Below are positions 10,139 to 36,284 of a DNA stretch of 40,654 nucleotides, piece after piece (the stretch's first letter is position 1; each line of letters starts with the position of its first letter). Below the pieces are notes generated by a model. The model did not search any database and had not been told where the DNA came from. It saw only the letters and a list, made by a program, of their open reading frames with translations. Made by a program: the position numbers and the translations under genes. The stretch comes from an uncultured Gammaproteobacteria bacterium (GTDB lineage Bacteria > Patescibacteriota > Microgenomatia > UBA8517). Location of the stretch: assembly GCA_964431555.1 (NCBI GenBank), contig CAYSJW010000019.1, positions 1 through 40,654 of the forward strand, read 5' to 3'.

Positions 10139-10149
10139 TTAATCTTTTT

Positions 10150-16593: not shown

Positions 16594-16682
16594 AAGTGGG
16601 TATAAAATAAATTAGAAATAAAATCTTTTAAATCCCTTGAAAAACAAAAACTTTTAATACCTTTATAGTAAAATCGATATAA

Positions 16683-17504: not shown

Positions 17505-17602
17505 TAAGAAATCCACAGCCTAAAGGCCGTGGATTTCTTGGCTTCATCTAAACTATTCTACATCTACACGCTAAAGCGCCTTGCTTTATAGATGTAGTAA
17601 AA
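17503..17602. repeat. ~100-bp double-hairpin dispersed repeat, copy 2
   Basis: aagaaatccacagcc-taaa-ggccgtggatttctt (one mismatch), plus ctacatcta...cgctaaagcg...tagatgtag. Confidence 0.8.
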
Positions 17603-17654
17603 ATCCATCTTAAACCTCAAAAGAAAACACTCTTGTGTTAAAATATAGGCTGAA

Positions 17655-20405: not shown

Positions 20406-20411
20406 AACCGT

Positions 20412-21497: not shown

Positions 21498-21586
21498 TGA
21501 TAGATAAATTTTATATCACTTTGCTGCCCAGATACAAAAAATTTCTTAAACACACCGGAGGATTAAAATTTCAAAGTGGTAAAACC

Positions 21587-22582
21587 TCAGATTTCAACAA
21601 CTCCTACTTGACTGCTTTTAGCCCTCTCAAGCCATAAAGGTATATCGTTTTCTTTCAACAAACCTTTCTGCGAACCAATATAACCAATAACAGAGGCTGA
21701 ATTTACTACTCCCCACAAAAGCGCTTCTTCCAAACTCTTACCCTTGATCAATGCTGAAATACAAGCTGATCCAAAAGCATCGCCGGCTCCGGTTCTCTCA
21801 TAAGGATCAACTGGTAACACACCCGCTTTCATAAACTTTACTCCATCATAGGCAAATGCCCCATTGGAACCATCTGTTATGATAGAAATTTTTGGACCTA
21901 TACTGGAAAGAGCTTTTAAAAGATCTTTATCTCTCCCATGAGAGTCACTAATTCCGGTTAATGTTTCAGCCTCCTCCCTGTTTACATAAATAATGTAGGT
22001 TCTTTTAAGTACAGGTTTCAAAACATTAGTTCCTGCTCTTATTTGGCGAGACCCCGGATTGAAAGCTAACTTTATCTGAGAGTTTTGAGAAACAAAATCT
22101 ATCAAATGATCATAAAATGGTTGAAAACTTTCCCCCATAGATGTCAAATAAATCCAGGGAGTAACCGGAAGATTACCAGGAAACTCATAAGACCTTGGAG
22201 CGTGATAGGTAAAAATAGTTCTCTCACCCGAATAATTAATTATCGCGGAAAGATTCGAGCTAGTCATAGGCTGTTGAACAACCCAATTCATATTAACTCC
22301 CTCCTTTTCTAATCTTTCAACTATCTGGCTACCAATTGAGTCTCCTCCCAATGTTGCAACAATTCCAACTTTTACTCCCAACCTTGCCGCTCCCACTGCA
22401 TTATTTGCCGCATTTCCTCCAATTGAGTATTCAACCTTCTTAACCGGTATTTTTTCACCATAAGAAAAGCAAATTAAACACTTTTTAATATCCGTAAAAC
22501 AGAGCGATTCGCTTTCAGTAGGAATCAAAAAAATATCCAGCGAAGCATCACCGATTGATAAAAGTTCCAATTCGCTACTCAT
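21587..22582 (-). CDS. PfkB/ribokinase-family carbohydrate kinase
   Basis: GGNAANNAVGAARLG, FNPG, VNREEA, TDGSNGA, ERTGAGDAF. Start moved to ATG 22582 (MSSELE), overlapping the fba stop. Confidence 0.9.
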   Translation of the reverse strand: MSSELELLSIGDASLDIFLIPTESESLCFTDIKKCLICFSYGEKIPVKKVEYSIGGNAANNAVGAARLGVKVGIVATLGGDSIGSQIVERLEKEGVNMNWVVQQPMTSSNLSAIINYSGERTIFTYHAPRSYEFPGNLPVTPWIYLTSMGESFQPFYDHLIDFVSQNSQIKLAFNPGSRQIRAGTNVLKPVLKRTYIIYVNREEAETLTGISDSHGRDKDLLKALSSIGPKISIITDGSNGAFAYDGVKFMKAGVLPVDPYERTGAGDAFGSACISALIKGKSLEEALLWGVVNSASVIGYIGSQKGLLKENDIPLWLERAKSSQVGVVEI

Positions 22583-23591
22583 TCTCCATCTCCTTTCTAT
22601 ATTCCCCTCTCCTGGCAAGACTGTTAAGTTTTGCTCTTTTGTAAAAAGCGCTTTGGGCACTTTTAATGTTTTCTCTTTTTCCCTGCCAAGCTTTTAGCAC
22701 TGGTTCTTGCAAAGCTCTACCAAAAGAAAAGCTAAACTCACAATCTATCTTCTTTATTTTATTAATTTCATTTAAATTCTCTGTTGCCTCAAACGGACTT
22801 TGCCCACCTGATAAAAAAACAATTCCAGGAAGCTCTTCAGGAATTAAACTTTCAAAACATCTAAGTGTTGCTTCAGCTACCTCAAAAGAAGATGGTTTTT
22901 TAAGACTTTCCTTTCCTGCAATAACCATATTCGGCTTAAGCAAAATCCCGGCTAAATCAATTCTATGATCCCTTAACTTTTTGAAAAGCAATTCTAGAAC
23001 TTTATTAGTTACCTCTTCACATTTTTCCAAGCTGTGGTCTCCGTCCATCAAGACTTCGGGCTCAACAATAGGCAAAAGATCAGCTTCTTGAGACAGACCG
23101 GCAAATCTAGCCAAAGATTCGCAATTTGTCTCAATACAGACATCTGTTGGTTTGTCAACTCCAATAGAAAAAACAGCTCTCCATTTTGTAAACTCTGCAC
23201 CCAAACTTTTATAATCTTTTAGTCTCTCTCTTAATCCATCCAAACCTTCAGTAATTTTTTCTCCTGGAAAATTCTCAAAGTCCACCGTCCCCTTATCAAC
23301 CTTAATTCCAGGAACAACACCTTTCTCTTTAAGAAGATTGGAAAAGGGAATTCCTTCATCTGATTTTTGTTTTATCGTCTCATCAAAAAGAATAACTCCT
23401 GATATAAATTCTTCAATACCCGGCGTGGTAAAAAGTATCTGCCTGTAAACCCTGTTTGTCTCGGGATTAGATTCTACTCCCACCGAACTTAATCTCTTTT
23501 TCATCGTCATTGTACTCTCATCTGCTGCCAATATCCCCTTACCTGAAGCAACAAGACTTTTCGCAAGATTACGAAGTTTATCTTTATCCAT
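22575..23591 (-). CDS. fba: Class I fructose-bisphosphate aldolase (eukaryote-like glycolytic family)
   Basis: GKGILAADES, GVILFDET, PGIKVDKG, KWR, PIVEPEVLMDG, LLKPNMV (Schiff-base Lys), FLSGGQS, SFGRALQ. Confidence 0.95.
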   Translation of the reverse strand: MDKDKLRNLAKSLVASGKGILAADESTMTMKKRLSSVGVESNPETNRVYRQILFTTPGIEEFISGVILFDETIKQKSDEGIPFSNLLKEKGVVPGIKVDKGTVDFENFPGEKITEGLDGLRERLKDYKSLGAEFTKWRAVFSIGVDKPTDVCIETNCESLARFAGLSQEADLLPIVEPEVLMDGDHSLEKCEEVTNKVLELLFKKLRDHRIDLAGILLKPNMVIAGKESLKKPSSFEVAEATLRCFESLIPEELPGIVFLSGGQSPFEATENLNEINKIKKIDCEFSFSFGRALQEPVLKAWQGKRENIKSAQSAFYKRAKLNSLARRGEYRKEMENE

Positions 23592-23679
23592 ATTTCAAAT
23601 TTAACATTTTATTAAGTTAATCAACAAGAGTAAAATCTAATCTACATTGAAGATTATCTTTTCATGATAGATAATTTAT

Positions 23680-24207
23680 ATGAGCATGGAAAACAAAAAA
23701 GAACTACAAGCCAAAAAACTAGATCCTTTTGATTTGGAAATCTTTACAAGCCTAAATTCCTATCTAAAACCTAAAAAACCCTTTTGGCAGGAAATACTCG
23801 AAAAAAACTCTGTTAAAACCGTTCTTACAATTATCCTACTTTTATTTCTTTTTGGATCAACCTTCCTGATTGCGGAAAAAATAGCCAAACCAACTCTTAC
23901 TATTTCCAAAGCGGATATTAAATACGTCCCGCAGGCAAAAATAAATATCCCCACTTATATTCCACAAAATCAAATCAAAAATAAAGTAAGTAACTGCCAA
24001 GAAGTAAAAGAAAAGTACGAAAAACAAACATTTTTATACTCTTTTTGTCAAGGAGAAATATGTAAAAACCAAAAAAATAAAGAATCTTGTGAATCAGTAG
24101 ATGTGATCGTCTTAAAGGATGAATTTTTATCAGAGGAAAGCGGACAAGATGGAATACAGGATTGTTTATGGGTTAATGAAGAATCCCTTTGCAAACCCAG
24201 ATATTAA
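23680..24207 (+). CDS. Hypothetical single-pass membrane protein with Cys-rich extracellular domain
   Basis: TM helix at about aa 47-65; six Cys in the C-terminal half. Confidence 0.65.
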   Translation: MSMENKKELQAKKLDPFDLEIFTSLNSYLKPKKPFWQEILEKNSVKTVLTIILLLFLFGSTFLIAEKIAKPTLTISKADIKYVPQAKINIPTYIPQNQIKNKVSNCQEVKEKYEKQTFLYSFCQGEICKNQKNKESCESVDVIVLKDEFLSEESGQDGIQDCLWVNEESLCKPRY

Positions 24208-24257
24208 AAAGATTGACAACCACTTCTCAATAAGTTCATAATGATCTTAGATTTAAA

Positions 24258-25193
24258 ATGACTGAATGGATAAAGAGAAATAAAATCTGGGTAATCTTTA
24301 TTCTTCTAATCTCATACTTTTTAGTTAAATTTATAAGCTCTTTTTTTGGCATAAACCTTTTTAGCACAAGCACCAAAACTGTTTCCAAAAGTGCCTATCC
24401 CAATCCTGAAAGCATAAATTTAGCAACAGATGGTCAATATTACGGTTTAAAAGACATTAAAATCAGAGAGCCTTACTCTCCCGCCGGCGATTATACTCCA
24501 CAAACTGACACTGAAAATCGTCTGGTAATCAAGGAGTCTAATATGTCCCTTCTTGTAAAAAATGTCACAGATGCAAGAAATAAAATTGTTGAATATGCAC
24601 AGAAAAGCGGTGGTTACATGGTATCCTCAAGTGTTTCAAACCCACAAGACACACCTTCAGCAACTGTTGTTATCAGAATACCTTCGGAAAAACTAGAAGA
24701 GTCTCTGGAATTTTTCCGATCCCTTTCTGTAAAGGTAGTATCAGAAAATCTATTAGGACAAGATGTTACCGATCAGTATATAGATATTGATAAACACATC
24801 CTGCAACTTGAAAGGTCAAAAGCGAGACTTGAGGAAATTCTTGAGAAGGCCGAAAATATTACAGACATAACCAACCTAACACAACAGATCATCAATTACC
24901 AAAATCAAATTGACTCTTATAAAGGCCAGCAGGACTATTTGGAAAAAAATGCCCAACTTGCAAAACTAACAATCTATATTTCCACAGATGAAATAGCCCT
25001 TCCTTATACTCCAAGCGAAACCTTCAGACCAGCGGTAATATTAAAACTCGCAGTAAGATCGCTCATTAAGACTTTAAGAGGTTTGGCAACACTTGGAATT
25101 TGGATTGGAGTATACGCTGTTATCTGGGTTCCTACACTAGGTGTCTACATCTTCCTTAAGAAGTGGCTAAAAAAAAGAAATCTTTCAAAATAA
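24258..25193 (+). CDS. DUF4349-like membrane protein
   Basis: RLVIKES...GGYMVSS...IRIPSE...GQDVTDQYID coiled coil and C-terminal TM. Promoter-like ttgaca-18-cataat at 24213-24242. Confidence 0.85.
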   Translation: MTEWIKRNKIWVIFILLISYFLVKFISSFFGINLFSTSTKTVSKSAYPNPESINLATDGQYYGLKDIKIREPYSPAGDYTPQTDTENRLVIKESNMSLLVKNVTDARNKIVEYAQKSGGYMVSSSVSNPQDTPSATVVIRIPSEKLEESLEFFRSLSVKVVSENLLGQDVTDQYIDIDKHILQLERSKARLEEILEKAENITDITNLTQQIINYQNQIDSYKGQQDYLEKNAQLAKLTIYISTDEIALPYTPSETFRPAVILKLAVRSLIKTLRGLATLGIWIGVYAVIWVPTLGVYIFLKKWLKKRNLSK

Positions 25194-25243
25194 AAATCTA
25201 ATCAGCTTTTTAATACTTTCTGCTAAATTACTCAAAAATAAGA

Positions 25244-25546
25244 TTAATTTTTAAAGAATTTTTTATAAAACAACTCAATTTCCCCAAACAGTTTAATAAT
25301 AATTCCAATAAACAAAACCAAGCCTGCCGGAAAAGTCAAAAATACAATTAAAACTGAAAAAATCACGCCTTCAAGCCCACAACCGTTTTTGCAAATGATA
25401 AGAGCCAGATATATTGGAGTGAAAAAAAGCAAAAGCATTACGCCCCAAAATATTTTGGCTCCTCTACTTCCCTTCTTCGTCCATCTAAATACCCAGATAA
25501 GAAAAAATAAAATATGAAAAATAAAAAATAAAAAGACTTTACTCAC
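25244..25546 (-). CDS. Small three-TM hypothetical protein
   Basis: GTG start overlaps the transketolase stop (GTGA); three hydrophobic segments; CxxxC loop. Confidence 0.55.
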   Translation of the reverse strand: MSKVFLFFIFHILFFLIWVFRWTKKGSRGAKIFWGVMLLLFFTPIYLALIICKNGCGLEGVIFSVLIVFLTFPAGLVLFIGIIIKLFGEIELFYKKFFKN

Positions 25547-26571
25547 TTTCGTCTATCTATCACCCTTTTAACCGCTCTAATTACATATTTTGACTTCAAC
25601 TTATATTTTTCCAACAATTCATCCGGTTCTCCTGACTCTCCAAACGAATCACGCACACCAATAAATTCCATTGGAACAGGATATTGTTTAGTCAATAATT
25701 CTGCTATTGCGCTACCTAAACCCCCTGCGATTTGATGCTCCTCCACTGTTACAACAGCTCCTGTTTTCTTAGCTACCTCAATAATTTTATTTTCATCCAA
25801 AGGTTTTATGGTATGACAATTGACAACAATCGTTTTTATATCCTCTTTCTCCAACTCCTTAGCTGCAAGCAGGGCTTCATAAACCAAAGGTCCACAGGCA
25901 ATTATAGTTACACTGTTGATGATGGGTGATTGGTGATTGGTTGATAGTCCAGAAACAACAGAATCCCAAAAAATTTCTGCCCTGCCTATCTTAAATGGCG
26001 AATCTTGCGTTGTTATAACCGGCGTTGCTTCTCTCGTAAACCTCAAATAAGTTGGTTTACCGTTAAAGGCAGCCTCCACAACCGCCTTTTTAGCTTCAAT
26101 CGCATCGCAGGGAACAACAACGATCATATTAGGCAGAACTCTCATCAAGGCTATATCTTCAAGCGCCTGGTGAGTTGCTCCATCAGGACCAACCGAAACT
26201 CCGGTATGGTGGCCTGCAATTTTTACCGGAACATTATTTAGAGCAACTGTAGTTCTTATCTGCTCCCAATTGCGCCCGGGAGAAAATGTAGCGTAAGATG
26301 CAATAAAAGGAATTTTGCCATAATTTGCCATCCCTGATGCCACAGTTGCCAAAGCCTGCTCTGCAACCCCAACTTCAATAAATCTATCTGGAAACTCTTT
26401 TTTAAAATAATCAGTTCTGGTTGATTCTGTTACATCGGCGCACAAAGCAACAACCCGAGAATCTTTCCTTCCTGCTTCAACCAAACCTTCTCCATAACCG
26501 TTTCTGGTAGGAATCTTCTCTATATCCTCTGTAAATATTTCCTCTGATAATCTCGCTTTTTTATTAAGCAT
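25543..26571 (-). CDS. tkt: Transketolase, C-terminal (pyrimidine-binding) subunit
   Basis: EVGVAEQ, GPDGATHQALED, YLRFTR, VTVEEH, GGLG. ATG at 26571 preferred. Confidence 0.93.
   Translation of the reverse strand: MLNKKARLSEEIFTEDIEKIPTRNGYGEGLVEAGRKDSRVVALCADVTESTRTDYFKKEFPDRFIEVGVAEQALATVASGMANYGKIPFIASYATFSPGRNWEQIRTTVALNNVPVKIAGHHTGVSVGPDGATHQALEDIALMRVLPNMIVVVPCDAIEAKKAVVEAAFNGKPTYLRFTREATPVITTQDSPFKIGRAEIFWDSVVSGLSTNHQSPIINSVTIIACGPLVYEALLAAKELEKEDIKTIVVNCHTIKPLDENKIIEVAKKTGAVVTVEEHQIAGGLGSAIAELLTKQYPVPMEFIGVRDSFGESGEPDELLEKYKLKSKYVIRAVKRVIDRRK
25914..25947. repeat. 7-nt tandem repeat tract inside the transketolase coding sequence
   Basis: tgttga tgatggg tgattgg tgattgg ttgatag, encoding LSTNHQSPIIN on the minus strand. 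Confidence 0.6.
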
Positions 26572-26703
26572 AACCTTTACATTAACTCCAAAATTTCTTG
26601 GCAATAAAATAGAAAAAAACCGACAGAAAACATCGCTAATTTCTTAAATGGCTGAGTATCTTCATAAAAAGTGCGCAATTAAAAAAATCTTTTTTACATT
26701 CTC

Positions 26704-26740
26704 AACTGTAACTTTAAACTTTGCACTTTGAATTTTTAAC
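26704..26740. repeat. Intergenic 7-nt tandem repeat tract
   Basis: aactgta actttaa actttgc actttga attttta ac. Confidence 0.55.
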
Positions 26741-27263
26741 TCTTCTTTCCGGAATCTCTCCATTTCCTGTACTCGGGGTCGTTTTGAAGATTATAATAAT
26801 GTTGCGTCTCAATTAAGGCAAAATCAACATATTCACGATTACCAGCCAAATAATCTAAAAGCAACTTTTTTGTATAAAAAGCAGTAAATTCTGAAGTGTC
26901 CATTTTTTCAATATCATAAGCGTTTACCCATCTGTAATCATTTATTCTTCCCTTTACTTCAAACTCCTTAAAAACTTTAGCAACTGCGATAAACATCAAA
27001 ACGGTCCTATCCGTATGCAATAATTCCTCAATCTTATATATCCCCAACGGTTCAATCTCCACACCAATCTCTTCCTGAAGAATACGTTTTAAAGCATCCC
27101 GTAAAGATTCTTTTAACTTTGGTCTCCCTCCCGGCAAGCCCCAGTGCAAAGGCATCCATTCATCACTTTCTGGTTCCTGTATAAGAAGTATGTTTCCTTC
27201 CTGGTTCTCTATAATCATCTTTGCCGAATTAATCTTTTTATAGTTATAATTTATATCTTTCAT
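26736..27263 (-). CDS. Nudix hydrolase
   Basis: WGLPGGRPKLKESLRDALKRILQEEIGV: Nudix box with RI in place of RE. Confidence 0.85.
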   Translation of the reverse strand: MKDINYNYKKINSAKMIIENQEGNILLIQEPESDEWMPLHWGLPGGRPKLKESLRDALKRILQEEIGVEIEPLGIYKIEELLHTDRTVLMFIAVAKVFKEFEVKGRINDYRWVNAYDIEKMDTSEFTAFYTKKLLLDYLAGNREYVDFALIETQHYYNLQNDPEYRKWRDSGKKS

Positions 27264-27266
27264 AGA

Positions 27267-27482
27267 TTAAAAGGTTACACACTTAGTTTTAAACAATAAC
27301 TTCAACAGTCTTTTCTCTATCGGTTCTGGCCCAATTCTCGGCATACAATCAATAGGAAATTTTATAAATGTTCTGACAAGCAAGTAGAGGACAGATACAA
27401 AAACGACTATCAGTAAAATCTTTATTAAAATTTTTTTCGATTTTAAATTCTTTGCTCTTACCAATGTATCAGTCTCACTCAT
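27267..27482 (-). CDS. Small single-TM hypothetical protein
   Basis: Overlaps the transketolase N-subunit stop; TM helix then IDCMP...C. Confidence 0.55.
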   Translation of the reverse strand: MSETDTLVRAKNLKSKKILIKILLIVVFVSVLYLLVRTFIKFPIDCMPRIGPEPIEKRLLKLLFKTKCVTF

Positions 27483-28320
27483 GTTCAGATTTAATTTTAC
27501 CAGATAACGTCCTTAAATTATTCAAAGCTTCTATAGTTTCGCCTAAATTTGGCGGCTTTCCATGCCATTCAGGAAGATTCTCCATAAACTCAACTCCCTT
27601 ACCCGGAATAGTTCTACATATAATCACTGTCGGATTTTCATGAATTGCTTTTGCCATATTGACTGCTTCAACTATCGCTTCAATATTGTGGCCATCAATT
27701 TCTAAAACTGACCAGTTAAACGACTCGTATTTTGCCCTAAGAGGTTCAAGCGGCATAATATCTTCTGTGTATCCGTCAATTTGAATATTGTTTCTATCAA
27801 CTAAGACAGTTAAATTGGAAAGATTGTTTTTACCAGCAAACATTACTCCCTCCCAGTGATTACCCTCCTGATGTTCTCCGTCGGAAGTTAGACAAAAAAT
27901 CCTAAACCTTCTTCCATCCATTCTTGCCGCGTACGCGTAGCCGGCAGCTTGCGCCAAACCAGATCCCAACGGTCCCGAAGTTATCTCAATACCCGGAAGT
28001 CTTTCTCTTTCCGGATGTCCTTGAAGCCGAGAACCCAACTTCCTTAAAGTCGCCAGCTCCTCACAGGGGAAAAAACCGGCATAAGCTAAGGTTGCATAAA
28101 GTAGCGGACAGATGTGCCCATTTGAAAGAAAAAGTCTATCCCTCTCCTCCCAATTTGGATTTTTTGAATCATAATTCATTACCCCCCCGAAATAAAGCGC
28201 TGTAAAAACATCCGCCATTCCCAAAGAACCAGCCGAGTGTCCGCTTCCCGCTTCAAGAAGCATTTTTATCACATCTTCACGGATTTCACCTGCTTTTCTC
28301 TGGAGATCCTCAATATACAT
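27475..28320 (-). CDS. tkt: Transketolase, N-terminal (TPP-binding) subunit
   Basis: SGHSAGSL, RDRLFLSNGH, RLQGHP, SGPLGSG, SDGEHQEG, DRNNIQIDG, WHGK. ATG at 28320 preferred. Confidence 0.95.
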   Translation of the reverse strand: MYIEDLQRKAGEIREDVIKMLLEAGSGHSAGSLGMADVFTALYFGGVMNYDSKNPNWEERDRLFLSNGHICPLLYATLAYAGFFPCEELATLRKLGSRLQGHPERERLPGIEITSGPLGSGLAQAAGYAYAARMDGRRFRIFCLTSDGEHQEGNHWEGVMFAGKNNLSNLTVLVDRNNIQIDGYTEDIMPLEPLRAKYESFNWSVLEIDGHNIEAIVEAVNMAKAIHENPTVIICRTIPGKGVEFMENLPEWHGKPPNLGETIEALNNLRTLSGKIKSEHE

Positions 28321-28346
28321 AAAAAGGCAATATTCCAAATCCAACT

Positions 28347-28979
28347 TCAGGTCATAAATGCTTTCTCTCGACAAACCTTGCAATGAGAATGGTCTATTTT
28401 GGAAAACTCATGCTCAATTTTCTCTATCGCGGGCAAAACCTCCGATTTTCTTTCTACTATTTCAAAAACGTCCAGCTCATCTTTACTCAAATTAAGGTTT
28501 TCCTTAAAACACCTTATAATGTTTTTCCAGAAACTTCCATACAAAATAAATGGCTTATGATGTCCATGATAAAGCTTTGCCAAAACCCACGCGGTTCCAA
28601 ACTCTGAAATAGTACCTGAACCTCCCCTGAAGATAATATACATATCGGCATGTTCAAGCAGTTTAAACATCCGGTCGATATAATTGGTTGTCACAATTTC
28701 CCGATCAGGAATATTTCCGACATACCTTCCCTCAAAACCAGGGGCATTTTCCGGATAAAAGGTCACTGTCAAGGTTTCCCCTCCTCCCTCCTCGGCCCCG
28801 TGAGTGGCCGCATCCATAACCCCCGGTCCTCCACCGTTAACAATGGTATAACCTTTGGAAGCCAAAAGCTTTGCCACATCAAAGGCCTGTTTATATAAAG
28901 GGCTTATTTTTTTTGCCGACGCATCCCCAAAAAAGGCAATGTTTTTAATTAAAGGCCTTGGCAAATAATCTTCACTCAT
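28347..28979 (-). CDS. LOG-family protein (putative nucleoside monophosphate phosphoribohydrolase)
   Basis: NGGGPGVMDAA...GAEEGGG and RGGSGTISE (PGGxGTxxE variant). Confidence 0.85.
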   Translation of the reverse strand: MSEDYLPRPLIKNIAFFGDASAKKISPLYKQAFDVAKLLASKGYTIVNGGGPGVMDAATHGAEEGGGETLTVTFYPENAPGFEGRYVGNIPDREIVTTNYIDRMFKLLEHADMYIIFRGGSGTISEFGTAWVLAKLYHGHHKPFILYGSFWKNIIRCFKENLNLSKDELDVFEIVERKSEVLPAIEKIEHEFSKIDHSHCKVCREKAFMT

Positions 28980-29026
28980 ATTAAAAATCTACAAAAAAGG
29001 GCTTTAGAGATTAAACTTATTAACAC

Positions 29027-29674
29027 TTAATTATCTCCTATTATTTTCTCTAATCTCTCTATATTTTCAATAAAATCATCCTTAAAAAGAGTTCTGCCTA
29101 TGGATACTTCGTCAGCTCCAGCAGAAACTATTCTTTTAATATTATCAAAATTTACTCCCCCATCAACATGGATTTTAAAAGGTGTTTCATCTTTCCTTCT
29201 TATTAAATCAAGTTTTTTTATTTTCTCCAAAACATCCTCATGGAACTTTTGCCCACCAAACCCAGCTTTGACACTCATCACCAAAACCACATCTAAGTTA
29301 TTAAGAATATCCGAATCTAAACTTTCAACCGGAGTTTCCAAATCAATAGCTAAACCTACTTTCACCCCAACTTCCTGAACCTTTCCAACAAATTCAGATT
29401 GAGAAGTCATCCTTTCTATATGACCTATAATCCTATCAGCTTGACCTCTTATACATCTTTCAATCCAATTAACAGGCTCCAGAACCATTAAGTGGTAATC
29501 TAAGTTAAAACTCGTGTCAATATCAGAGAAAAGATCTGGCGTAACAGTCTTATTATCAACAAATTTCCCATCAATAATATCAATAGAAACTCTTTTTAAT
29601 ACACCTTCACACTTATGTAAGATTTCTTTTGCTTCGTTAAAATCGGTAGTTAAAATTGAAGAAACTATTTCCAT
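29027..29674 (-). CDS. rpe: Ribulose-phosphate 3-epimerase
   Basis: IDIIDGKFVDN, DYHLMV, VLVMSVKAGFGGQKF, VDGGVN. Confidence 0.92.
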   Translation of the reverse strand: MEIVSSILTTDFNEAKEILHKCEGVLKRVSIDIIDGKFVDNKTVTPDLFSDIDTSFNLDYHLMVLEPVNWIERCIRGQADRIIGHIERMTSQSEFVGKVQEVGVKVGLAIDLETPVESLDSDILNNLDVVLVMSVKAGFGGQKFHEDVLEKIKKLDLIRRKDETPFKIHVDGGVNFDNIKRIVSAGADEVSIGRTLFKDDFIENIERLEKIIGDN

Positions 29675-29744
29675 CCTTAATTTCCTTTAATTAAAGGTTT
29701 AATACTTTCCATAATATACAAATTTAACCAGTTAAAGTTTCTTC

Positions 29745-30857
29745 CTAATCGTTTCTAAAAGATAAGGTTATTGGATCGCTTGGAGCTTTATCAATATTTA
29801 ACCTTTGTCCAACTCTTATCACCTGTTCAATCAATCTATTGGCATAGCCCCATTCGTTATCATACCAAGCAAAAACCTTAACTAAATTTCCTCCAACCAC
29901 TTGAGTAAGCGATAGATCAACAATAGCAGATTCGCTTCTCCCGATTATATCACTTGATACCAAAGGTTCATCAGAAACAGCCAATATTCCCTTGTACAAG
30001 GCATTTTCCTCTGCAGCTTTTTTCAAAGAATTATTAACTTCATCAACAGTTACATTCTTTTTTAATAAAAAGGTAAAATCAGAAATGGATCCAGTTGCAG
30101 TTGGAACCCTTATAGCCACACCATCAAAGCGGTTCTTCAAATCAGGAATTGTTTCGGTTGTTGCAACTGCTGCACCCGTTGTTGTTGGAATTATATTTTC
30201 CGCCGCGGCTCTAGCTCTACGCAAGTCTCTGTGAGAATTATCTTGTAAATTCTGGTCATCCGTATATGAATGAATTGTGGTCATCAAAGCCTTTTCAATC
30301 CCAAATGCTGAATGAATCACAGCAGCAACAGGTGCAATACAATTCGTCGTACAACTAGCGTTATTTATAACTTGAGCCTTGCCATCGTATTCATTCACCC
30401 CCAAAACATAAGTGCCTACATTTCCTCCCTTTGAAGGAGCTGAAATCACCACCCTCTTCGCCCCACCCAAAGCATGCTTTTTAGCTTCCTCTTCTGAAGT
30501 AAATTTACCCGTTGATTCAATGACCACATCTACCCCGTAATTTTTCCAGGGGATTCTCGCCGGATCCCTTTGAGCTAAAACCGGAATCCTTTTATTCTTT
30601 TCTCCCACCAAAAGATAACCAATCAAAGGATCTTCATCTGTTACCTCCTTGGGATCTTTTAGATTCTGACTCTGAACATTAAACTCAAACTTACGATACA
30701 TTGTGTCATAATTAACCAGATGAGCCCAACCTGAAGCATCCATACTCCCCGAGGTGTTTATAGCAGTTATATCCATCTCATTCCAATGTTTTAGAAGCCA
30801 AATTCTAAAGGCAATCCTTCCTATCCTTCCAAATCCATTTATACCAACTTTTATCAT
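29745..30857 (-). CDS. gap: Type I glyceraldehyde-3-phosphate dehydrogenase
   Basis: GINGFGRIGR, ESTG, NASCTTNC, RRARAAA, WYDNEWGY. Confidence 0.97.
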   Translation of the reverse strand: MIKVGINGFGRIGRIAFRIWLLKHWNEMDITAINTSGSMDASGWAHLVNYDTMYRKFEFNVQSQNLKDPKEVTDEDPLIGYLLVGEKNKRIPVLAQRDPARIPWKNYGVDVVIESTGKFTSEEEAKKHALGGAKRVVISAPSKGGNVGTYVLGVNEYDGKAQVINNASCTTNCIAPVAAVIHSAFGIEKALMTTIHSYTDDQNLQDNSHRDLRRARAAAENIIPTTTGAAVATTETIPDLKNRFDGVAIRVPTATGSISDFTFLLKKNVTVDEVNNSLKKAAEENALYKGILAVSDEPLVSSDIIGRSESAIVDLSLTQVVGGNLVKVFAWYDNEWGYANRLIEQVIRVGQRLNIDKAPSDPITLSFRND

Positions 30858-30905
30858 ACCTTTTTCAGTTTAGCAAAACTTAGCAAAAATCAAAAGCTGG
30901 AAAAT

Positions 30906-31607
30906 CTAAACAGAGTGCCATTTATGAACAGGGTGATGTAAAAAAAACGTATAAATTGTCTTTTTGAAATATCTAATGAGATACAAAGGATCGCTTTTTA
31001 ACCTCCTCCCCGAGATTGGCATTACCAAGGAAGGAACAAAAACTATTTTACCTTGTGAACAAAGATGACAAGCTATATCTTGATCTTCATGAACTTTGCT
31101 ATCATTCTCATGAAATCTAATCCCATTTAGCGTATATTTCCTTACGGCAAAATTAGGCCCGCTTAACTGATAATGTCCAAAAAACATCCTTATGAGATAA
31201 AAATTCATTAAAAAAAGAAATCTCGAAATATATTTAAGCAAAATTCCCTGATCAAAAAATTCATCACTCCCAGTTACTGCAACTACCTTTGGATCCTCTT
31301 CAAAAACCTCGTAAATCCTGCTAAGCCAGTTTTTGGGAGGAATTGCATCAGCGTCAGTTCTGGCAATAATTTCTCCAAGTGCTTTGGAAAATCCTTTATT
31401 TCGTGCATACGAAAGCCCAGTTTTCCTTTCAAAAACCAAACGAACTTTATACTGTTTCGCAATAGATGAAGTATTATCTGTGGAGGCATTATCTACCACT
31501 ATTACTTCGTAACTCTGAAAGTCTTGCCTCAAAAGTGCTTCAAGACAACTCCCTAAGTATTTTTCTTCATTCCTAGCTGGTACAACTACTGAAATCAGAG
31601 GTTTCAT
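30906..31607 (-). CDS. Family 2 glycosyltransferase
   Basis: ISVVVPARNEE, VVDNASTD, ARNKG, TDAD (DxD), HED. Confidence 0.92.
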   Translation of the reverse strand: MKPLISVVVPARNEEKYLGSCLEALLRQDFQSYEVIVVDNASTDNTSSIAKQYKVRLVFERKTGLSYARNKGFSKALGEIIARTDADAIPPKNWLSRIYEVFEEDPKVVAVTGSDEFFDQGILLKYISRFLFLMNFYLIRMFFGHYQLSGPNFAVRKYTLNGIRFHENDSKVHEDQDIACHLCSQGKIVFVPSLVMPISGRRLKSDPLYLIRYFKKTIYTFFLHHPVHKWHSV

Positions 31608-31768
31608 AAAATAAAATTATAAAAATATTAAATCAAAAAATACCGTTTAATAATTTATATACCATTATATTTTTCAAAAAACAAAATTAAACGATGAAAA
31701 AAATATCCGTTTAGTTTAGAATAACAAATTGGACAATTAACCCTAAAAATTTAAGAGTAAATTTTTTT

Positions 31769-33019
31769 ATGAATATTGCAATATTTACAGATACTTATTT
31801 ACCTGAAATAAACGGGGTCTCTATTTCAGTTTTTCAATTGGCAAATGAACTTTCAAAGAATAACAAGGTAATTGTTTTTTGCCCAAAATACCCAAAAGGA
31901 AACAACAAAGGCAAAGGTGAATTTAAAATAGTCAGAATAAAATCAGTACCCTTGCCAATTTACAAAACCTTAAGGTTCTCTCTACCCAACTTACTATCTA
32001 TCTACAAAACATTAAAAAAATTCAAACCGGACATTACCCACTTTCACTCTCCGGGTCCTTTAGGTATTGCCTGTCTAATAATCTCAAAATACCTTAAAAT
32101 ACCCGTCATTGCCACCTATCACACTCTTTACAACGAACTTATTTTTTACGTATCCCCCATAGAAAAGATTAAAAAATTGCTATCGGAAAAAATTTTAGAA
32201 AACTTGTGGTCAACACAAAAACCAGTTAAGAAATTTACTTTCGTTTGGAAAAAAATTTGGAAAAATAATCGCAAAAAAGAAAGCCGGCTGGAAAAAATAA
32301 CCTGGAAAGCAATAAAAGAATTTCACGCATCTTGTAATAAGATAATAATTCCTTCACCTTTCGTTAAAAAACTGATGGACAAAAAGGGATTAAAAGGCAA
32401 AACGATAAACATCTTTAATGGAGTTGATATATTTAAAAAATTTCCTGCAAAAAAGGATTACTCACTTAAAAATAACATTCTTTTTGTGGGAAGACTGGCT
32501 GAAGAAAAAAGATTAGATTTATTGATCAAATCTTTTTATTTAGCTAAGAAAGTCTTACCCAATTTAATCCTAACAATTTCAGGTGATGGTCCTGAAATGG
32601 AGAGATTAAAAAAACTCACTGCAAAACTAAATATCGAAAACTCCGTAAAATTTCTGGGAATGGTTCCTCAAGAAAAACTTACCCAAATTTACCATAACTC
32701 GGATATCTTTGTAATTACTTCAAAGACTGAAAACCAACCCCTGGTTGTCTTGGAAGCAATGGCATCAGGTTTACCAATAATAGGAGTCAAAAAACACGGT
32801 CTCACCGACCTCATAGATAATTCTGTCAACGGATACTTACTAGATCCAAAAAATATAAAGCTTTTATCAAAATACATAATCAAATTAATAAAAAATCAAA
32901 AACTTCGAGAAAAATTAGGTAAAAATTCCAGAAGAAAAGCAAAAGACTACGACATTCAAAAAACTGCCTCTAAAACATTTGATCTTTATAAAAGCATCAT
33001 TCAAAAAAAAACTAACTAA
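31769..33019 (+). CDS. Family 4 (GT-B) glycosyltransferase, diacylglycerol glucosyltransferase-like
   Basis: FTDTYLPEINGVS, ATYHT, VGRLAEEK, GDGP, ENQPLVVLEAMASG. Confidence 0.92.
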   Translation: MNIAIFTDTYLPEINGVSISVFQLANELSKNNKVIVFCPKYPKGNNKGKGEFKIVRIKSVPLPIYKTLRFSLPNLLSIYKTLKKFKPDITHFHSPGPLGIACLIISKYLKIPVIATYHTLYNELIFYVSPIEKIKKLLSEKILENLWSTQKPVKKFTFVWKKIWKNNRKKESRLEKITWKAIKEFHASCNKIIIPSPFVKKLMDKKGLKGKTINIFNGVDIFKKFPAKKDYSLKNNILFVGRLAEEKRLDLLIKSFYLAKKVLPNLILTISGDGPEMERLKKLTAKLNIENSVKFLGMVPQEKLTQIYHNSDIFVITSKTENQPLVVLEAMASGLPIIGVKKHGLTDLIDNSVNGYLLDPKNIKLLSKYIIKLIKNQKLREKLGKNSRRKAKDYDIQKTASKTFDLYKSIIQKKTN

Positions 33020-33914
33020 GCGCCTCTATTCCTGGCAAAGTACCTTTAGCCAAAAATTCAAGCATTGCTCCACCACCAACTGAAATCCAATCAAATTTTT
33101 CTGTTAGTCCGTATTTGGAAATAGCAGCTTCTATATCTCCTCCACCAGCTACTTTAAAGGCTTTGAAATTATCAGCTATAGCTTGCAAGATCATTCTTGT
33201 TCCTTTACTGGCATTCTCATCTTCATACTTCCCCATCACACCCGCCGCCAATATCACATCCGCCTCCTTTATCTTTCCCACATAATCTTCGATTACCTCA
33301 TCTGAAATATCCAATCCATCCGATCGCAGAGTAACTCCGGGCAAAAGCCCTCCTTTCAAAACATATAAAAATTTATCCTTCATTTGTTCTGAAAATCTTT
33401 GCTTATCTTCGATTTTAGTTCCGCCAATAACCAAAACCCTTTTTCCTTGCCTTTCCCAAACTTTTGAAAGCATTTCAATTTCCTTTTCAAAACGAATTCC
33501 AGCACAAACGAATTTGGAGGAAGACCTAAAAAACTTTGGCAGGGCAACTATTGAAGTATGAACCCTGTGAGAAGTTGCAAATGATTCATTTATATAAACA
33601 TCCCAACCTTCTGCCAGCTCCCGTGCGAATTCAGAATTATTTTCTTTTTCCCTCGGATCTTTTCTCAAGCCGGAATAAAACTCAATCCCTGAAAATTCCT
33701 GGCTTAGTTGCGAGGCTAAATCATATTCCGTCTCAGTATGACCAATAACCTTAATTTTCAAAGCCCCCTTTTCCAAAAGAAATCTAATTATTTCCCTAAT
33801 CGAATTAGCTCTGGGGTTATCCCCATCATCAACATCGAAATCCCCCCTCACCAAGACATTTTTCCCTTCAAATTCTATTTGGCTGACTTTGGGAAAATTC
33901 AACATATCAAACAC
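33012..33914 (-). CDS. pgk: Phosphoglycerate kinase, unusually short (~300 aa)
   Basis: VRGDFDV, INESFATSHRVHTS, GGTKIEDK, GLDI, GVMGKYE, AGGGD, ISVGGGAMLEFL..GTLPG. Alternative ATG at 33905. Confidence 0.85.
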   Translation of the reverse strand: MFDMLNFPKVSQIEFEGKNVLVRGDFDVDDGDNPRANSIREIIRFLLEKGALKIKVIGHTETEYDLASQLSQEFSGIEFYSGLRKDPREKENNSEFARELAEGWDVYINESFATSHRVHTSIVALPKFFRSSSKFVCAGIRFEKEIEMLSKVWERQGKRVLVIGGTKIEDKQRFSEQMKDKFLYVLKGGLLPGVTLRSDGLDISDEVIEDYVGKIKEADVILAAGVMGKYEDENASKGTRMILQAIADNFKAFKVAGGGDIEAAISKYGLTEKFDWISVGGGAMLEFLAKGTLPGIEALS

Positions 33915-33993
33915 TTAATCATAAATTATATATCCTAGACCGTAAACCCCGAGTTTATATCCCCTCTAAATAAAGTTATCTAGATAATAAAAT

Positions 33994-34473
33994 TTAATTA
34001 TTCGCTTCAATTTTCCTTATTTCCTCTAAACGTCTTTTATGCCTTTCTTTTTTATCAAAGTCGGTTTTTAAGAAAGCCTCAACCATATTTTTTGCTTCAT
34101 TATAAGTAGTATAATCCGCGGCAATTACCAAGACATTCATGTCATCATCTCGCCTCCCTGCTTCAACCTGTTTAGCCGTCTTTCCGACAGAAGCTCTTAT
34201 CCCATCAAATTTATTAGCCGTCACATCAACACCAACCCCGCTTCCGCATAAAAGAATACCACGAGATTTTTTCTCTTTAGCAACCAGAGAAGCAACTTCA
34301 GAAGCATAAAGTGTATAATCATCTTCAGGATCAAAGTGGCTGGCGCCTACATCCAAAAATTCAAATCCGTTCTCATATAAAAGTTTTACAATCTTTTCTT
34401 TCAATTCAAAACCCCGATGGTCCGCGCCTATATAAACTTTTAGATCCTTGCCTTTATTTACAAGCTTTGACAT
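33994..34473 (-). CDS. rpiB: Ribose-5-phosphate isomerase B
   Basis: GADHRGF, DDY, GILLCGSGVG, ANKFDGIRA, RHKRR. Confidence 0.93.
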   Translation of the reverse strand: MSKLVNKGKDLKVYIGADHRGFELKEKIVKLLYENGFEFLDVGASHFDPEDDYTLYASEVASLVAKEKKSRGILLCGSGVGVDVTANKFDGIRASVGKTAKQVEAGRRDDDMNVLVIAADYTTYNEAKNMVEAFLKTDFDKKERHKRRLEEIRKIEANN

Positions 34474-34489
34474 TTATATACACCTAACT

Positions 34490-35149
34490 TTATAGAAAAC
34501 CTTCGACCAAATCCTGCAATTCCCTACCGGGATTTTCGGCTTTGACAATATCACTGGCTACTGCAATACCGCTTGCACCCAAACTCAGACTTACTCTTAC
34601 ATCATTTGTGTCCTTAATACCCGCTCCCACTATCAAAGGAATTCCCTTCTGTTTTGAAATTTCAACCGCTTTGGAAATAACCTCGGGCTTTTCTCTGGCA
34701 ACCGATGTTGTCAAACTACCCACCAATTCCGGAGGCTCATAAGATACATAATCAGGCTTCAATTCCAAAACTTTATCCAATTCGCGAAGATCCTTGGTAA
34801 AAATTAAAGTCCTCAAACCAACCTTTTTTGCTCTATTATTGGCAAGCTCAAGGTCAGAAAAATCTTTAAACCTTCTTTCTGAATGATTCAAGAAAGTACC
34901 AGAAGCCCCATCTTCATAGACAGCCTCGGGGATTATCGCGCCTGTGTGAGCGCCGTACTCAATAGGATCAATGTGCTGTGTCCAAATTTCCAGCTTTGAA
35001 ATCGACACTACTTCCTTCACATCGGCGGCTTGAACAACAGGAATTATCTTAATCTGCATCTTGCTGGCAACCTCTTCGATAACTTTGACCAAATAGAGAG
35101 CATTTTCCCCGCTTCCCTCTTTATAGGTTTTAAAATTCACAAAAATCAT
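34490..35149 (-). CDS. tpiA: Triosephosphate isomerase, short archaeal-type
   Basis: VNFKTY, QHID, GAHTG, LNHSE, YEPPELVG, VGAGI; about 219 aa. Confidence 0.92.
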   Translation of the reverse strand: MIFVNFKTYKEGSGENALYLVKVIEEVASKMQIKIIPVVQAADVKEVVSISKLEIWTQHIDPIEYGAHTGAIIPEAVYEDGASGTFLNHSERRFKDFSDLELANNRAKKVGLRTLIFTKDLRELDKVLELKPDYVSYEPPELVGSLTTSVAREKPEVISKAVEISKQKGIPLIVGAGIKDTNDVRVSLSLGASGIAVASDIVKAENPGRELQDLVEGFL

Positions 35150-35227
35150 CAAAATAAATATTCGTTATAAAACATTTTCCAGCAAAGAAATAATTTAGTT
35201 TAATAAAATAAATCTATACTCTACAAG

Positions 35228-35485
35228 CTAATCACCACCAATTTTCAATATTCCATCTATCTTTCCTTTGTCAAATCCTAAAACAGTTTCCTTTGTCCCG
35301 TCATCCCTAATTATCAAAGTAAAAGGAACTCCCATAAAACCATTAGATTCCAAAATCATCTCCTTTTGCGCAGAATCATCTAAGTCAATCAATTTTTCCT
35401 CAAAGGAAAAACCCTTTTCCGAAAGATAATCTTTTAACATTTTGCAATAAGGACAAGTTGTCGTTGAATAAATAATTATCTTCAT
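35228..35485 (-). CDS. Glutaredoxin/NrdH-like redoxin
   Basis: YSTTTCPYC, GVP, GFD. ATG at 35485 (MKIII) preferred. Confidence 0.9.
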   Translation of the reverse strand: MKIIIYSTTTCPYCKMLKDYLSEKGFSFEEKLIDLDDSAQKEMILESNGFMGVPFTLIIRDDGTKETVLGFDKGKIDGILKIGGD

Positions 35486-35486
35486 C

Positions 35487-36221
35487 TTAAGAAAAAAAGA
35501 AACCGATAATCTTGTACCAAAACGGTCCATCGATAGAGACTGTTTCTCCAGTTATAGCCGATACCTTTAAAGAAACTGGTACAGAATATTCAAAAAAATT
35601 AAAGATGTTAAAAACTTTTTCCCCTGAAAACGAATACTGAAGATCTCTTTTTTCCTCTTTAATCTCCAATAAATTATCCTTGACTCTGCTAATAAGCTTA
35701 GATTTTAAAACACCTCTTACTACATCTGATGGCAACATCGCCAAGAATCTTTCTCCACTTTCAGTTTTCAGCGATATTCTGGCAGATTTTGGATCTACCT
35801 GAATCGGATATTCCGTCAAAGCAAGAAATTTTCCCTGACTAATGCTAAATTTATTATCAACAACTCCTATGTTAAATCTTTGGACTTCAGCTCTCTCCTC
35901 AACCTCTATAAGATCCTCTCTGAATCCGTTTACACTTATCTCTCTACTTTCATTATCATTAAAAACACTTAAGCTTATTTTCCCATCATCTTTTCTAAGC
36001 TCAATTAGTGATTTAGGATTAACACTATCATCAAACACCTTTTTTACTTCAATGGATGAATGAGAAGGAACACTTATATCCAAACTGTCCTCTTGAGACA
36101 ATACCTTCCAGATAATCTCACCGTTTTTTCCAACAGACAAAACGCTGGCATAAACACTTGAAGAGCTCAAATTCAAAAAAATAACAAACAAAAACAAAAG
36201 AATAATGACTTTCTTAACCAT
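35487..36221 (-). CDS. Hypothetical exported protein
   Basis: Signal-peptide-like N-terminus ending VYA; beta-rich; C-terminal VSAITGETV..PFW. Confidence 0.7.
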   Translation of the reverse strand: MVKKVIILLFLFVIFLNLSSSSVYASVLSVGKNGEIIWKVLSQEDSLDISVPSHSSIEVKKVFDDSVNPKSLIELRKDDGKISLSVFNDNESREISVNGFREDLIEVEERAEVQRFNIGVVDNKFSISQGKFLALTEYPIQVDPKSARISLKTESGERFLAMLPSDVVRGVLKSKLISRVKDNLLEIKEEKRDLQYSFSGEKVFNIFNFFEYSVPVSLKVSAITGETVSIDGPFWYKIIGFFFS

Positions 36222-36284
36222 TAAATAAAGATACCACAGATTGAAAAATAAAAACCAGTATCCTTATATCTGCCCAAGAAGATT

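Follow-up and report, generated by a model that had tools for sequence, protein, structure and literature searches.

A LOG-family gene linked to transaldolase-less pentose phosphate clusters of Microgenomates-type bacteria: a possible hydrolytic entry for nucleotide ribose

We analyzed a 40,654-nucleotide stretch of DNA (GenBank assembly GCA_964431555.1, contig CAYSJW010000019.1, positions 1 to 40,654 of the forward strand; hereafter "the window") from the genome of a tiny, groundwater-type bacterium deposited as an uncultured Gammaproteobacteria bacterium and placed by GTDB in the Patescibacteriota (Microgenomatia; UBA8517). On its minus strand, a gene for a divergent LOG-family protein lies within a run of pentose phosphate and glycolytic genes, and this association recurs well beyond this genome among bacteria belonging to the CPR (candidate phyla radiation). 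The best available reading, to which we give an even chance, is that LOG feeds nucleotide ribose into a transaldolase-less, RuBisCO-free pentose/glycolysis route. Specifically, the LOG-family enzyme would hydrolyze nucleoside 5'-monophosphates (NMPs) to free base and ribose-5-phosphate (R5P), from which RpiB and Rpe would form ribulose-5-phosphate and xylulose-5-phosphate; the split transketolase would then yield sedoheptulose-7-phosphate (S7P), glyceraldehyde-3-phosphate and fructose-6-phosphate (F6P). The single PfkB kinase would phosphorylate F6P and probably S7P, the adjacent aldolase would cleave fructose-1,6-bisphosphate and sedoheptulose-1,7-bisphosphate (SBP) to triose phosphates (plus erythrose-4-phosphate), and triose-phosphate isomerase, glyceraldehyde-3-phosphate dehydrogenase, phosphoglycerate kinase (PGK), a cofactor-independent phosphoglycerate mutase (iPGM), enolase and a phosphoenolpyruvate (PEP) synthase/pyruvate phosphate dikinase (PPDK)-type enzyme would carry these to pyruvate with a gain of ATP. 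We infer these steps, the substrates of LOG and PfkB and the direction of flux from family-level gene identities, conserved gene order, gene fusions and genome-wide absences, all of which were directly observed.

CPR bacteria (Patescibacteria) are very abundant, and what they live on is unclear. The nucleotide-ribose route so far proposed for them needs RuBisCO, which is absent from most.

Linkage of LOG to pentose phosphate genes in close and distant loci

The close set comprised 64 loci encoding a LOG 56–83% identical to that of the window (one genome per species scanned); these loci were annotated by tblastn with the window proteins, and LOG was re-detected in 63. Their usual gene order is grx-tpi-rpiB-pgk-gap-(rpe)-LOG-tktN-tktC-(fba)-pfkB, where grx encodes a glutaredoxin-like protein and tktN and tktC the two halves of transketolase. 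The tktN gene is held by 59 of the 63 loci and lies ≤400 bp from LOG in 55; gap adjoins LOG in 35, and rpe, held by 26, is ≤400 bp from LOG in every one of these. Since many close loci run off contig edges, a gene missing from a locus is not necessarily missing from the genome.

Conservation over greater distances was assessed with a profile of 32 LOG orthologs (A1) searched against 401 genomes spread over the phylum. Matches were obtained in 185 genomes, with a clear gap between 43 genomes scoring ≥162.9 bits and the next one at 104.6 bits; these 43 are referred to below as module genomes and were compared with 37 other Patescibacteria, picked in handle order, as controls. A distant set was made up of 37 LOG-ortholog loci from families other than that of the window, with LOG proteins 41–60% identical to the window LOG. 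There, the conserved core is rpiB-rpe-LOG-tktN-tktC-pfkB: 34 loci contain rpe, which adjoins LOG in 33 of them; rpiB occurs in 33, pfkB in 27 and tktN in 26, and gap, pgk and tpi are rare (2 loci for each gene).

Taken over the combined 101 loci, LOG sits between rpe or gap and tktN in nearly all, and recurrence of the arrangement in both sets shows that it is not due to chance. We conclude that rpiB-rpe-LOG-tktN-tktC-pfkB is the older core, i.e., LOG is part of an old pentose core, and, given the rarity of gap, pgk and tpi in distant loci, that the glycolytic genes came into the cluster at a later stage, within the Woesebacteria line. The whole may thus be pictured, with middling confidence, as a "pentose-phosphate funnel" of Microgenomates-type CPR to which fba, tpi, gap and pgk were added in Woesebacteria. 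The LOG-tkt-rpe linkage, for which the original prediction had proposed a check across CPR, is therefore not a peculiarity of the window genome.

Less durable was a second part of that prediction, in which a Nudix enzyme encoded between the transketolase halves supplies NMPs to the pathway. A Nudix gene occupies this position in 3 of the 64 close loci, those of the three nearest relatives, and in none of the 37 distant loci. Relative to the Nudix box consensus GX5EX7REUXEEXGU, the glutamate of the "RE" pair is replaced by Ile in the window protein and by Thr, Thr and Lys in its three homologs, one of which also has GD in place of EE. The gene is a lineage-specific insertion with a degenerate box, and both its local occurrence and its sequence led us to drop it as a pathway member.

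Fusions and recurrence in other LOG clades

Linkage is strengthened by gene fusion. Three loci of one family (L092, L093, L101) encode Rpe and LOG in a single open reading frame (ORF) of 402–413 aa. When the L092 protein was searched against a large protein collection, 205 proteins were retrieved at E ≤ 1e-20; among the 120 listed, all carry PF00834 and LOG domains, 118 cover ≥98% of the query, identity extends down to 43%, and the named ones are assigned to the WWE3 candidate division or called "LOG family protein". A triple fusion (P0082, 554 aa, 21 member sequences) joins RpiB (residues 5–139), Rpe (155–341) and LOG (364–537). Another LOG ortholog (L072:7935-9209, plus strand, 424 aa), directly after an rpe-like ORF, bears a C-terminal S-adenosylmethionine-dependent methyltransferase domain.

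As a control for linkage, we considered 20 loci with generic LOG paralogs (24–33% identical) in other Patescibacteria. Sixteen have no pentose phosphate or glycolysis neighbors and four do. In L109, L111 and L115, LOG comes just after a class I fba, with tkt upstream in L109 and L111. In L121 the order is rpe-tktN-tktC-fbaII-pfkB, followed 1 nt past the pfkB stop by the gene for a 651-aa protein (L121:4588-6543, plus strand) with a canonical LOG domain at residues 465–638 (PF03641, 100.6 bits); its 460-aa N-terminal part gave no Pfam match. Frames of 654–657 aa resembling this protein were seen in two more genomes (G109, G131). The tie between LOG and sugar-phosphate genes hence arose, or was maintained, in at least two LOG clades. 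No publication on a LOG-pentose phosphate link or on Rpe-LOG fusions in CPR was found in a literature search that covered few subscription journals and excluded supplements.

A pentose phosphate network closed between pentose phosphates and pyruvate

The window genome (G000; 995,585 bp in 35 contigs, 99.5% complete, 0.92% contaminated; the window is its contig C19) was searched for the enzymes on which the proposed route turns, with one family per absent function here and in genome G032 below. No match was found genome-wide for transaldolase (PF00923) or the RuBisCO large subunit (PF00016), and single-family searches likewise found no PfkA, pyruvate kinase or phosphoribosyl pyrophosphate (PRPP) synthase N domain; the same transaldolase search, run as a control, matched in 10 of 14 known genomes. 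In a family set of six (the window genome plus five others of its family, each complete or nearly so), none yielded 6-phosphogluconate dehydrogenase, phosphoglucose isomerase (PGI), AMP/thymidine phosphorylase (PF00591) or an IF-2B-type ribose-1,5-bisphosphate isomerase (PF01008). The prediction of a transaldolase-less window thus extends to the whole genome, the genome-wide check for tal and pfkA that it called for returned neither, and with RuBisCO, AMP phosphorylase and ribose-1,5-bisphosphate isomerase families not found, the route would indeed be independent of RuBisCO.

By contrast with these absences, lower glycolysis reaches pyruvate: enolase adjoins a PPDK_N/PEP-synthase-type enzyme on contig C33, and an iPGM-type mutase is also present. 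The genome holds exactly one PfkB and one LOG, both within the cluster, and tblastn found no second genomic copy of pfkB, fba, tkt, LOG, rpe, gap, pgk, rpiB or tpi. Its sole protein of phosphoribosyltransferase fold is ComF, and its sole protein of purine nucleoside phosphorylase fold, on a 2.2-kb contig, shows a faint likeness to AMP nucleosidase (35.9 bits). With PRPP synthase, 6-phosphogluconate dehydrogenase and PGI absent and ComF as the only phosphoribosyltransferase, R5P would have neither an oxidative source nor a drain into PRPP. Unlinked to glucose-6-phosphate as well, the network forms a closed stretch from pentose phosphates to pyruvate. Given the missing PRPP synthase, oxidative branch and PGI, catabolism is the likeliest direction of flux.

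Across the phylum, transaldolase was detected in 4 of the 43 module genomes versus 7 of the 37 controls, PRPP synthase in 8 versus 11, and RuBisCO (PF00016) in 0 versus 2; Tkt_N (PF00456) is present in 41 of the 43. RuBisCO is rare in both sets, so we draw no judgement as to mutual exclusion with the module.

The PfkB kinase and its aldolase partners

Membership of the window kinase in the PfkB superfamily is clear from its Pfam score and conserved GGN and TGAGD motifs, and its structural model (predicted local distance difference test, pLDDT, 92.4) aligns to PfkB kinases with TM 0.73–0.79. Within the superfamily, it falls far below every NCBIfam equivalog cut-off (a third or less), including those for ribokinase (TIGR02152, 102.5 bits versus 299.65) and Pfk-2 (NF007632, 28.1 bits versus 353), the latter leaving no equivalog-level likeness to E. 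coli Pfk-2. By sequence and fold it is equidistant from 2-keto-3-deoxygluconate (KDG) kinase, ribokinases, sulfofructose kinase and nucleoside kinase; as these score alike, we gave up settling the substrate in this way.

Gene context is more telling. In Woesebacteria, pfkB adjoins class I fba in 32 of the 33 close loci holding both; in 10 of 12 distant loci, from WWE3-type and other lineages, its neighbor is the unrelated class II fba. An alignment of 66 module PfkBs separates two types: group A, to which the window kinase and every PfkB found beside an aldolase belong, with invariant K44 and R121, and group B, found in nine loci (L008, L009, L013, L020, L067, L071, L076, L081, L089) and never beside an aldolase. 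Group B proteins, which occupy the pfkB place, have GGGxTN and DxTGAGD motifs and 27–33% identity to the window PfkB, and may have a different substrate. In one 668-aa protein (P0121, a single sequence), class I aldolase and PfkB domains occur together, with 65% identity to the window PfkB along the full length of the latter; the two adjacent genes may be truly fused here, or the assembly may have read through them. Longer relatives also include DUF2090-PfkB proteins, 37–40% identical to the window PfkB, which an NCBIfam match (NF047869) suggests are kinase-aldolase fusions.

The occurrence of PfkB beside two aldolase classes fits a kinase-plus-aldolase step, and without PfkA and transaldolase the most economical role for PfkB would be to supply the aldolase by phosphorylating F6P and S7P. 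On this works-like argument from gene context, a role as F6P/S7P kinase is likely but contested. The predicted shunt through SBP, standing in for transaldolase, thus keeps its central support, a sole PfkB tied to two aldolase classes, and loses some generality: class I aldolase was detected in 12 of the 43 module genomes and class II in 19 of the remaining 31, such that 12 of the 43 have neither of the two classes searched for. Also telling against this role, the best structural neighbors of PfkB are ribokinases, with scores near those of other PfkB kinases.

That last result is part of the case for a different assignment, in which PfkB is a ribokinase or nucleoside kinase and supplies this pentose module from free ribose. 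A nucleoside kinase would act one step before LOG, nucleoside being converted to NMP and this to base and R5P. Under either assignment, F6P would go to biosynthesis, e.g., of amino sugars. Foldseek ranks ribokinases and the Methanocaldococcus jannaschii nucleoside kinase first (TM 0.75–0.78), and the ribokinase and IolC models are the two that score about equally, near 102 bits. In L067–L071, L076 and L080–L086, pfkB directly follows tktC or LOG with no nearby aldolase, group B kinases take its place in some lineages, and the legend to a published map of a related genome includes a ribokinase, RK (Kadnikov et al., PMC7143001). Against this, Lys43 (in GGKGANQA) and Glu143 of E. coli RbsK are given as key ribose-binding residues (PMC12621476); in a HMMER alignment to 1gqt, the window PfkB has Asn at the first position and no acidic residue at the second. 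The window PfkB reaches one third of the equivalog cut-offs, and a ribokinase would not be expected beside two unrelated classes of aldolase or in kinase-aldolase fusions; S7P and F6P would become dead ends with neither phosphofructokinase (PFK) nor transaldolase, and the invariant K44 and R121 suggest an anionic substrate. We consider this assignment less likely, yet a serious alternative. A third candidate role, as ribose-1-phosphate kinase of the pentose-bisphosphate route, was rejected because the isomerase and RuBisCO of that route are absent.

Fold, conserved residues and probable substrate of the LOG protein

The best solved relatives of the window LOG by sequence are TT1465 and type II LOGs (E 1.9e-14 to 5e-11). 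Its AlphaFold model (pLDDT 82.9, predicted TM score 0.82) retrieved 9us2, 5wq3, 1wek and 5zi9 as top Foldseek matches (probability 1.0, TM 0.65–0.72), and the matches include Neisseria meningitidis YgdH, type II LOGs, AMP-bound type I LOGs and E. coli PpnN (6gfl). Model, structural matches and the PF03641 score agree on a Rossmann-like LOG fold. In all 32 orthologs of profile A1, the GGGPGVM loop, R103, G119, G120, G122, T123 and E126 are invariant, R103 and E126 being the LOG catalytic Arg and Glu.

In the Corynebacterium glutamicum type II LOG (CgLOGII), the counterparts of R103, T123 and E126 are all essential: Arg155 and Glu178 serve in catalysis and are shared by every LOG subgroup, replacement of Arg155, Lys156, Thr175 or Glu178 by Ala abolishes activity, and Asp177 binds adenine (PMC5379747). 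CgLOGII and TT1465 convert AMP to adenine and R5P, the type II LOGs assayed doing so slowly and with long incubation (PMC5379747), and PpnN cleaves 5'-NMPs to base and R5P (PMC6717881). Our reading of the conserved residues is that the window LOG preserves the ribose-5'-phosphate and catalytic site and is altered on the base side, making a nucleoside 5'-monophosphate its most likely, putative substrate. The Ser at position 125, in place of Asp177, suggests a different or broader base preference.

Two further features were noted. A loop at residues 75–92 is longer by 7 residues, a conserved, family-specific trait, in a region of low model confidence. The window LOG shares with some dozen close orthologs, but not with the others, a C-terminal tail (28347-28400) of the pattern DH-x-HC-x-VC ... 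AFMT; this tail may be metal-binding.

Findings that weigh against the proposed route

Several observations count against the route from nucleotides to pyruvate set out above. On the LOG side, the PGGxGTxxE motif reads [R/K/N/Q/S]GG[S/T]GTxSE in the orthologs, with the leading Pro absent; Met104 is invariant (32 of 32) where CgLOGII has the essential Lys156, with Thr in the Rpe-LOG fusions; Ser125 is invariant where type II LOGs have the adenine-binding Asp177; and the window LOG scores below the TIGR00730 cut-off (65.9 versus 96.35 bits). On the genomic side, Ldh_1_N was found in none of the six genomes of the family set, i.e., no L-lactate dehydrogenase-type sink for NADH was found there. 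Transaldolase and PRPP synthase are scarce across Patescibacteria as a whole, so that lacking them does not mark out module genomes, and we do not use it as a correlation. Finally, gene order shared among relatives is in part inherited and does not amount to independent evidence.

The most serious difficulty comes from a clade without Rpe. No rpe lies near LOG in 37 of the 101 loci, which belong almost entirely to one large Woesebacteria clade in the LOG tree and make up most of L024–L064. In one member, G032 (complete, 766,412 bp; L131–L169), a profile of 61 Rpe sequences, which finds the window Rpe at 1.7e-85, gave no Rpe at E ≤ 10 among ORFs of ≥60 aa; this is the one clade member in which absence was checked genome-wide. 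G032 keeps pfkB-fba-tktC-tktN-LOG-gap-pgk-rpiB-tpi-grx, and the locus listing revealed no consistent extra gene within Rpe-less clusters that might encode a replacement epimerase. Transketolase requires a threo-ketose donor; no Rpe means no xylulose-5-phosphate from R5P, and, by C2/C3 transfer bookkeeping, the lack of both Rpe and transaldolase leaves no net conversion of R5P to triose through transketolase. Either an unrecognized epimerase or donor operates in this clade, or the module serves something besides bulk pentose catabolism there. This lowers our confidence in the general model, although the window genome does have Rpe and its pathway is complete on paper.

The Rpe-less clade, which retains LOG despite a blocked pentose flux through transketolase, also bears on a reading in which LOG is a housekeeping or regulatory enzyme of the nucleotide pool (AMP disposal, nucleotide sensing), owes its position to inherited synteny or co-regulation, and accompanies a cluster that mainly balances host-derived sugar phosphates. 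Consistent with this are the 16 of 20 generic LOG loci of other Patescibacteria without pentose phosphate neighbors, the long incubation that the assayed type II LOGs needed with AMP (PMC5379747), and the regulation of purine metabolism by PpnN under alarmone control (PMC6717881). Fusion points the other way: the joining of LOG to Rpe in at least 118 protein clusters, and to RpiB-Rpe in P0082, is difficult to account for unless metabolites are shared. Moreover, the linkage outlived insertion of gap, loss of rpe and a swap of aldolase class, independent LOG clades again adjoin tkt, fba and pfkB, and the genome has no PRPP-based base salvage for such an enzyme to serve. We regard a purely housekeeping or regulatory LOG as improbable.

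Least probable, and in our view very unlikely, is that the LOG-fold protein was recruited as a sugar-phosphate enzyme that supplies the missing transaldolase step (and, in one clade, also the 3-epimerase step) and is not, or not only, a nucleotide hydrolase: its place between rpe and tkt in a non-oxidative pentose phosphate run, the lack of transaldolase in 39 of 43 module genomes, its retention without Rpe, the base-side changes of Lys to Met and Asp to Ser and the insertion at 75–92 would agree with this, against which stand the invariance of the N-glycosidase-site residues (GGGPGVM, R103, GTxSE126), co-occurrence and fusion with an intact Rpe, which exclude a simple Rpe replacement, persistence of LOG in the 4 module genomes with transaldolase and the fact that, to our knowledge, no LOG-fold aldolase or epimerase has been described. 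If it were true, the LOG fold would have a novel catalytic use, and the non-oxidative branch of pentose phosphate metabolism would exist in a new form.

Gene run and surroundings in the window

Gene calls combined the ORF listing with Pfam and NCBIfam (Table 1), and all three support the minus-strand positions predicted for pfkB, fba, tktC, the Nudix gene, tktN, LOG, rpe, gap, pgk, rpiB and tpi. The interleaving of LOG and Nudix with the transketolase genes was also borne out, with Nudix between the two halves and LOG immediately upstream of tktN.

Table 1. Genes of the sugar-phosphate run and of its interruptions, with the family evidence for each (window coordinates)
Feature	Coordinates	Strand	Evidence and remarks
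pfkB-family sugar/sugar-phosphate kinase	21587..22660	-	PF00294, E 2.6e-40, 139 bits
Class I fructose-bisphosphate aldolase (fba)	22575..23591	-	PF00274, E 3.6e-129; NF033379, 470.7 bits (cut-off 250)
175-aa hypothetical (+), DUF4349 (+), 100-aa membrane ORF (-)	23680..25546	mixed	Outside module
tktC, transketolase C-terminal half (pyrimidine-binding and C-terminal domains)	25543..26604	-	PF02779, E 1.4e-43; PF02780, E 1.8e-28
Nudix-fold protein	26736..27263	-	PF00293, 47 bits
tktN, transketolase N-terminal half (thiamine diphosphate-binding)	27475..28383	-	PF00456, E 1.2e-56
Divergent LOG-family protein (SLOG cluster 4/type II LOG-like)	28347..28979	-	PF18306, 60.6 bits; PF03641, 44 bits (cut-off 27)
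rpe, ribulose-phosphate 3-epimerase	29027..29674	-	PF00834, E 4.6e-46; NF004076, 173.1 bits (cut-off 165)
gap, type I glyceraldehyde-3-phosphate dehydrogenase	29745..30857	-	TIGR01534, 385.8 bits (cut-off 367.2)
GT2 glycosyltransferase	30906..31607	-	Pfam; outside conserved module
GT4 glycosyltransferase	31769..33019	+	Pfam; outside conserved module
pgk, phosphoglycerate kinase, short form, 300 aa	33012..33914	-	PF00162, E 2.8e-50, two stretches
rpiB, ribose-5-phosphate isomerase B	33994..34473	-	NF004051, 154.6 bits (cut-off 135)
tpi, triose-phosphate isomerase	34490..35152	-	NF003302 (best NCBIfam model), 221 bits (cut-off 132)
Glutaredoxin-like protein (grx)	35228..35530	-	PF00462, E 2.2e-12; kept upstream of tpi in most close loci

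The run is broken twice, a point not mentioned in the prediction, by three ORFs between fba and tktC and by GT2 and GT4 between gap and pgk. The presence of GT2 and GT4 varies among relatives, and DUF4349 occurs in few close loci only. The probable start of pfkB is an ATG at 22582, 5 nt past the fba stop. An alignment of the 300-aa PGK with a 347-aa relative contains 56 gap positions, most of them in the N-terminal half, and the two proteins are below the usual PGK length. Promoter-like and terminator-like sites in 21000-36500 were at chance level (48 versus 44.4 expected and 8 versus 10.6, respectively), and these scans are thus uninformative on operon limits.

Elsewhere in the window, positions 6834-10590 (minus strand) encode a ribonucleotide reductase large subunit (893 aa, with a TSCPD domain), NrdR and a cobalamin adenosyltransferase, a group in nucleotide metabolism that fits a nucleotide-scavenging lifestyle. 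A tyrosine recombinase of the phage integrase family beside a 775-aa TrwB/type IV coupling-protein-like ATPase (2876-6424) may be what remains of a mobile element. Positions 13426-21497 encode two penicillin-binding proteins of class A (799 and 916 aa) and, after them, a Beta-lactamase2-family protein with a long charged N-terminus. GC skew is negative in all 2-kb bins of the window (1-40654; -0.05 to -0.33), in agreement with the enrichment of C over G on one strand reported for Microgenomates genomes (PMC7143001).

Implications and comparison with known systems

Overall, the prediction of a nucleotide ribose pathway stands on the LOG-tkt-rpe linkage, the genomic absences and the PfkB-aldolase coupling, has lost its Nudix component, and is weakened by the base-side residues of LOG and by the Rpe-less clade, in which part of the pathway is still not understood. 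If true, Microgenomates and WWE3-type bacteria would gain a simple hydrolytic entry from scavenged RNA and nucleotides into an ATP-yielding fermentation, which would explain why the pentose phosphate pathway is retained despite the lack of PRPP synthase. It would also give a LOG subfamily a bulk catabolic role and an orphan PfkB kinase a glycolytic one. The RpiB-Rpe-LOG fusion makes the idea testable with one recombinant protein. LOG nucleosidase chemistry and the SBP bypass are already known; the linkage and fusion of LOG with pentose phosphate genes were not found in the literature.

Among characterized LOG proteins, the window LOG resembles type II LOGs (C. glutamicum Cg1261, Thermus thermophilus TT1465) and YgdH/PpnN in its fold, GGGPGVM loop, catalytic Arg and Glu and the Thr of the GT motif. 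It departs from type II LOGs in having Met for Lys156, Ser for Asp177, no leading Pro and the loop longer by 7 residues, and from PpnN in being without PAG domains. Unlike both, it is placed in a pentose phosphate run or, in relatives, fused to RpiB or Rpe, a placement that we did not find described.

In its proposed purpose, i.e., energy from the ribose of nucleotides or nucleosides in cells with little other metabolism, the route resembles the AMP (pentose-bisphosphate) pathway of archaea and CPR, which relies on form II/III or III-like RuBisCO (PMC5113843). In contrast, none of the three enzymes of that pathway was found in the window genome and five family members, and nucleotides would here enter by hydrolysis to R5P, which would pass on through the non-oxidative pentose phosphate pathway.

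Replacement of transaldolase by an SBP route has been shown by experiment in cellulolytic clostridia (PMC7029132). The window genome is similar in lacking transaldolase, in having transketolase and in offering a kinase and an aldolase for conversion of S7P to erythrose-4-phosphate and dihydroxyacetone phosphate; it differs in that its only kinase candidate is of the PfkB family and in that the route is proposed from gene order. The clostridial kinase is reportedly a PPi-dependent phosphofructokinase of the PfkA family.

Two systems from Patescibacteria come closest. The Microgenomates bacterium Ch65 ("Ca. Chazhemtobacterium aquaticus") lacks glucokinase, PFK and transaldolase and has a class I aldolase downstream of tkt, and its authors proposed that the aldolase may act as a transaldolase or that intermediates are imported (PMC7143001). 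The window genome likewise has neither a canonical PFK nor transaldolase; unlike in our account, a LOG gene and a kinase role for PfkB are not mentioned in the available text of that report. In TM7x, which belongs to another lineage and for which the accessible part of the source mentions no linkage to LOG or the pentose phosphate pathway, a "ribokinase" encoded beside fructose-bisphosphate aldolase was predicted to be a pfkB-type PFK (PMC12815258). The window genome and TM7x thus share a PfkB kinase and an aldolase in one operon of a Patescibacterium without canonical PFK.

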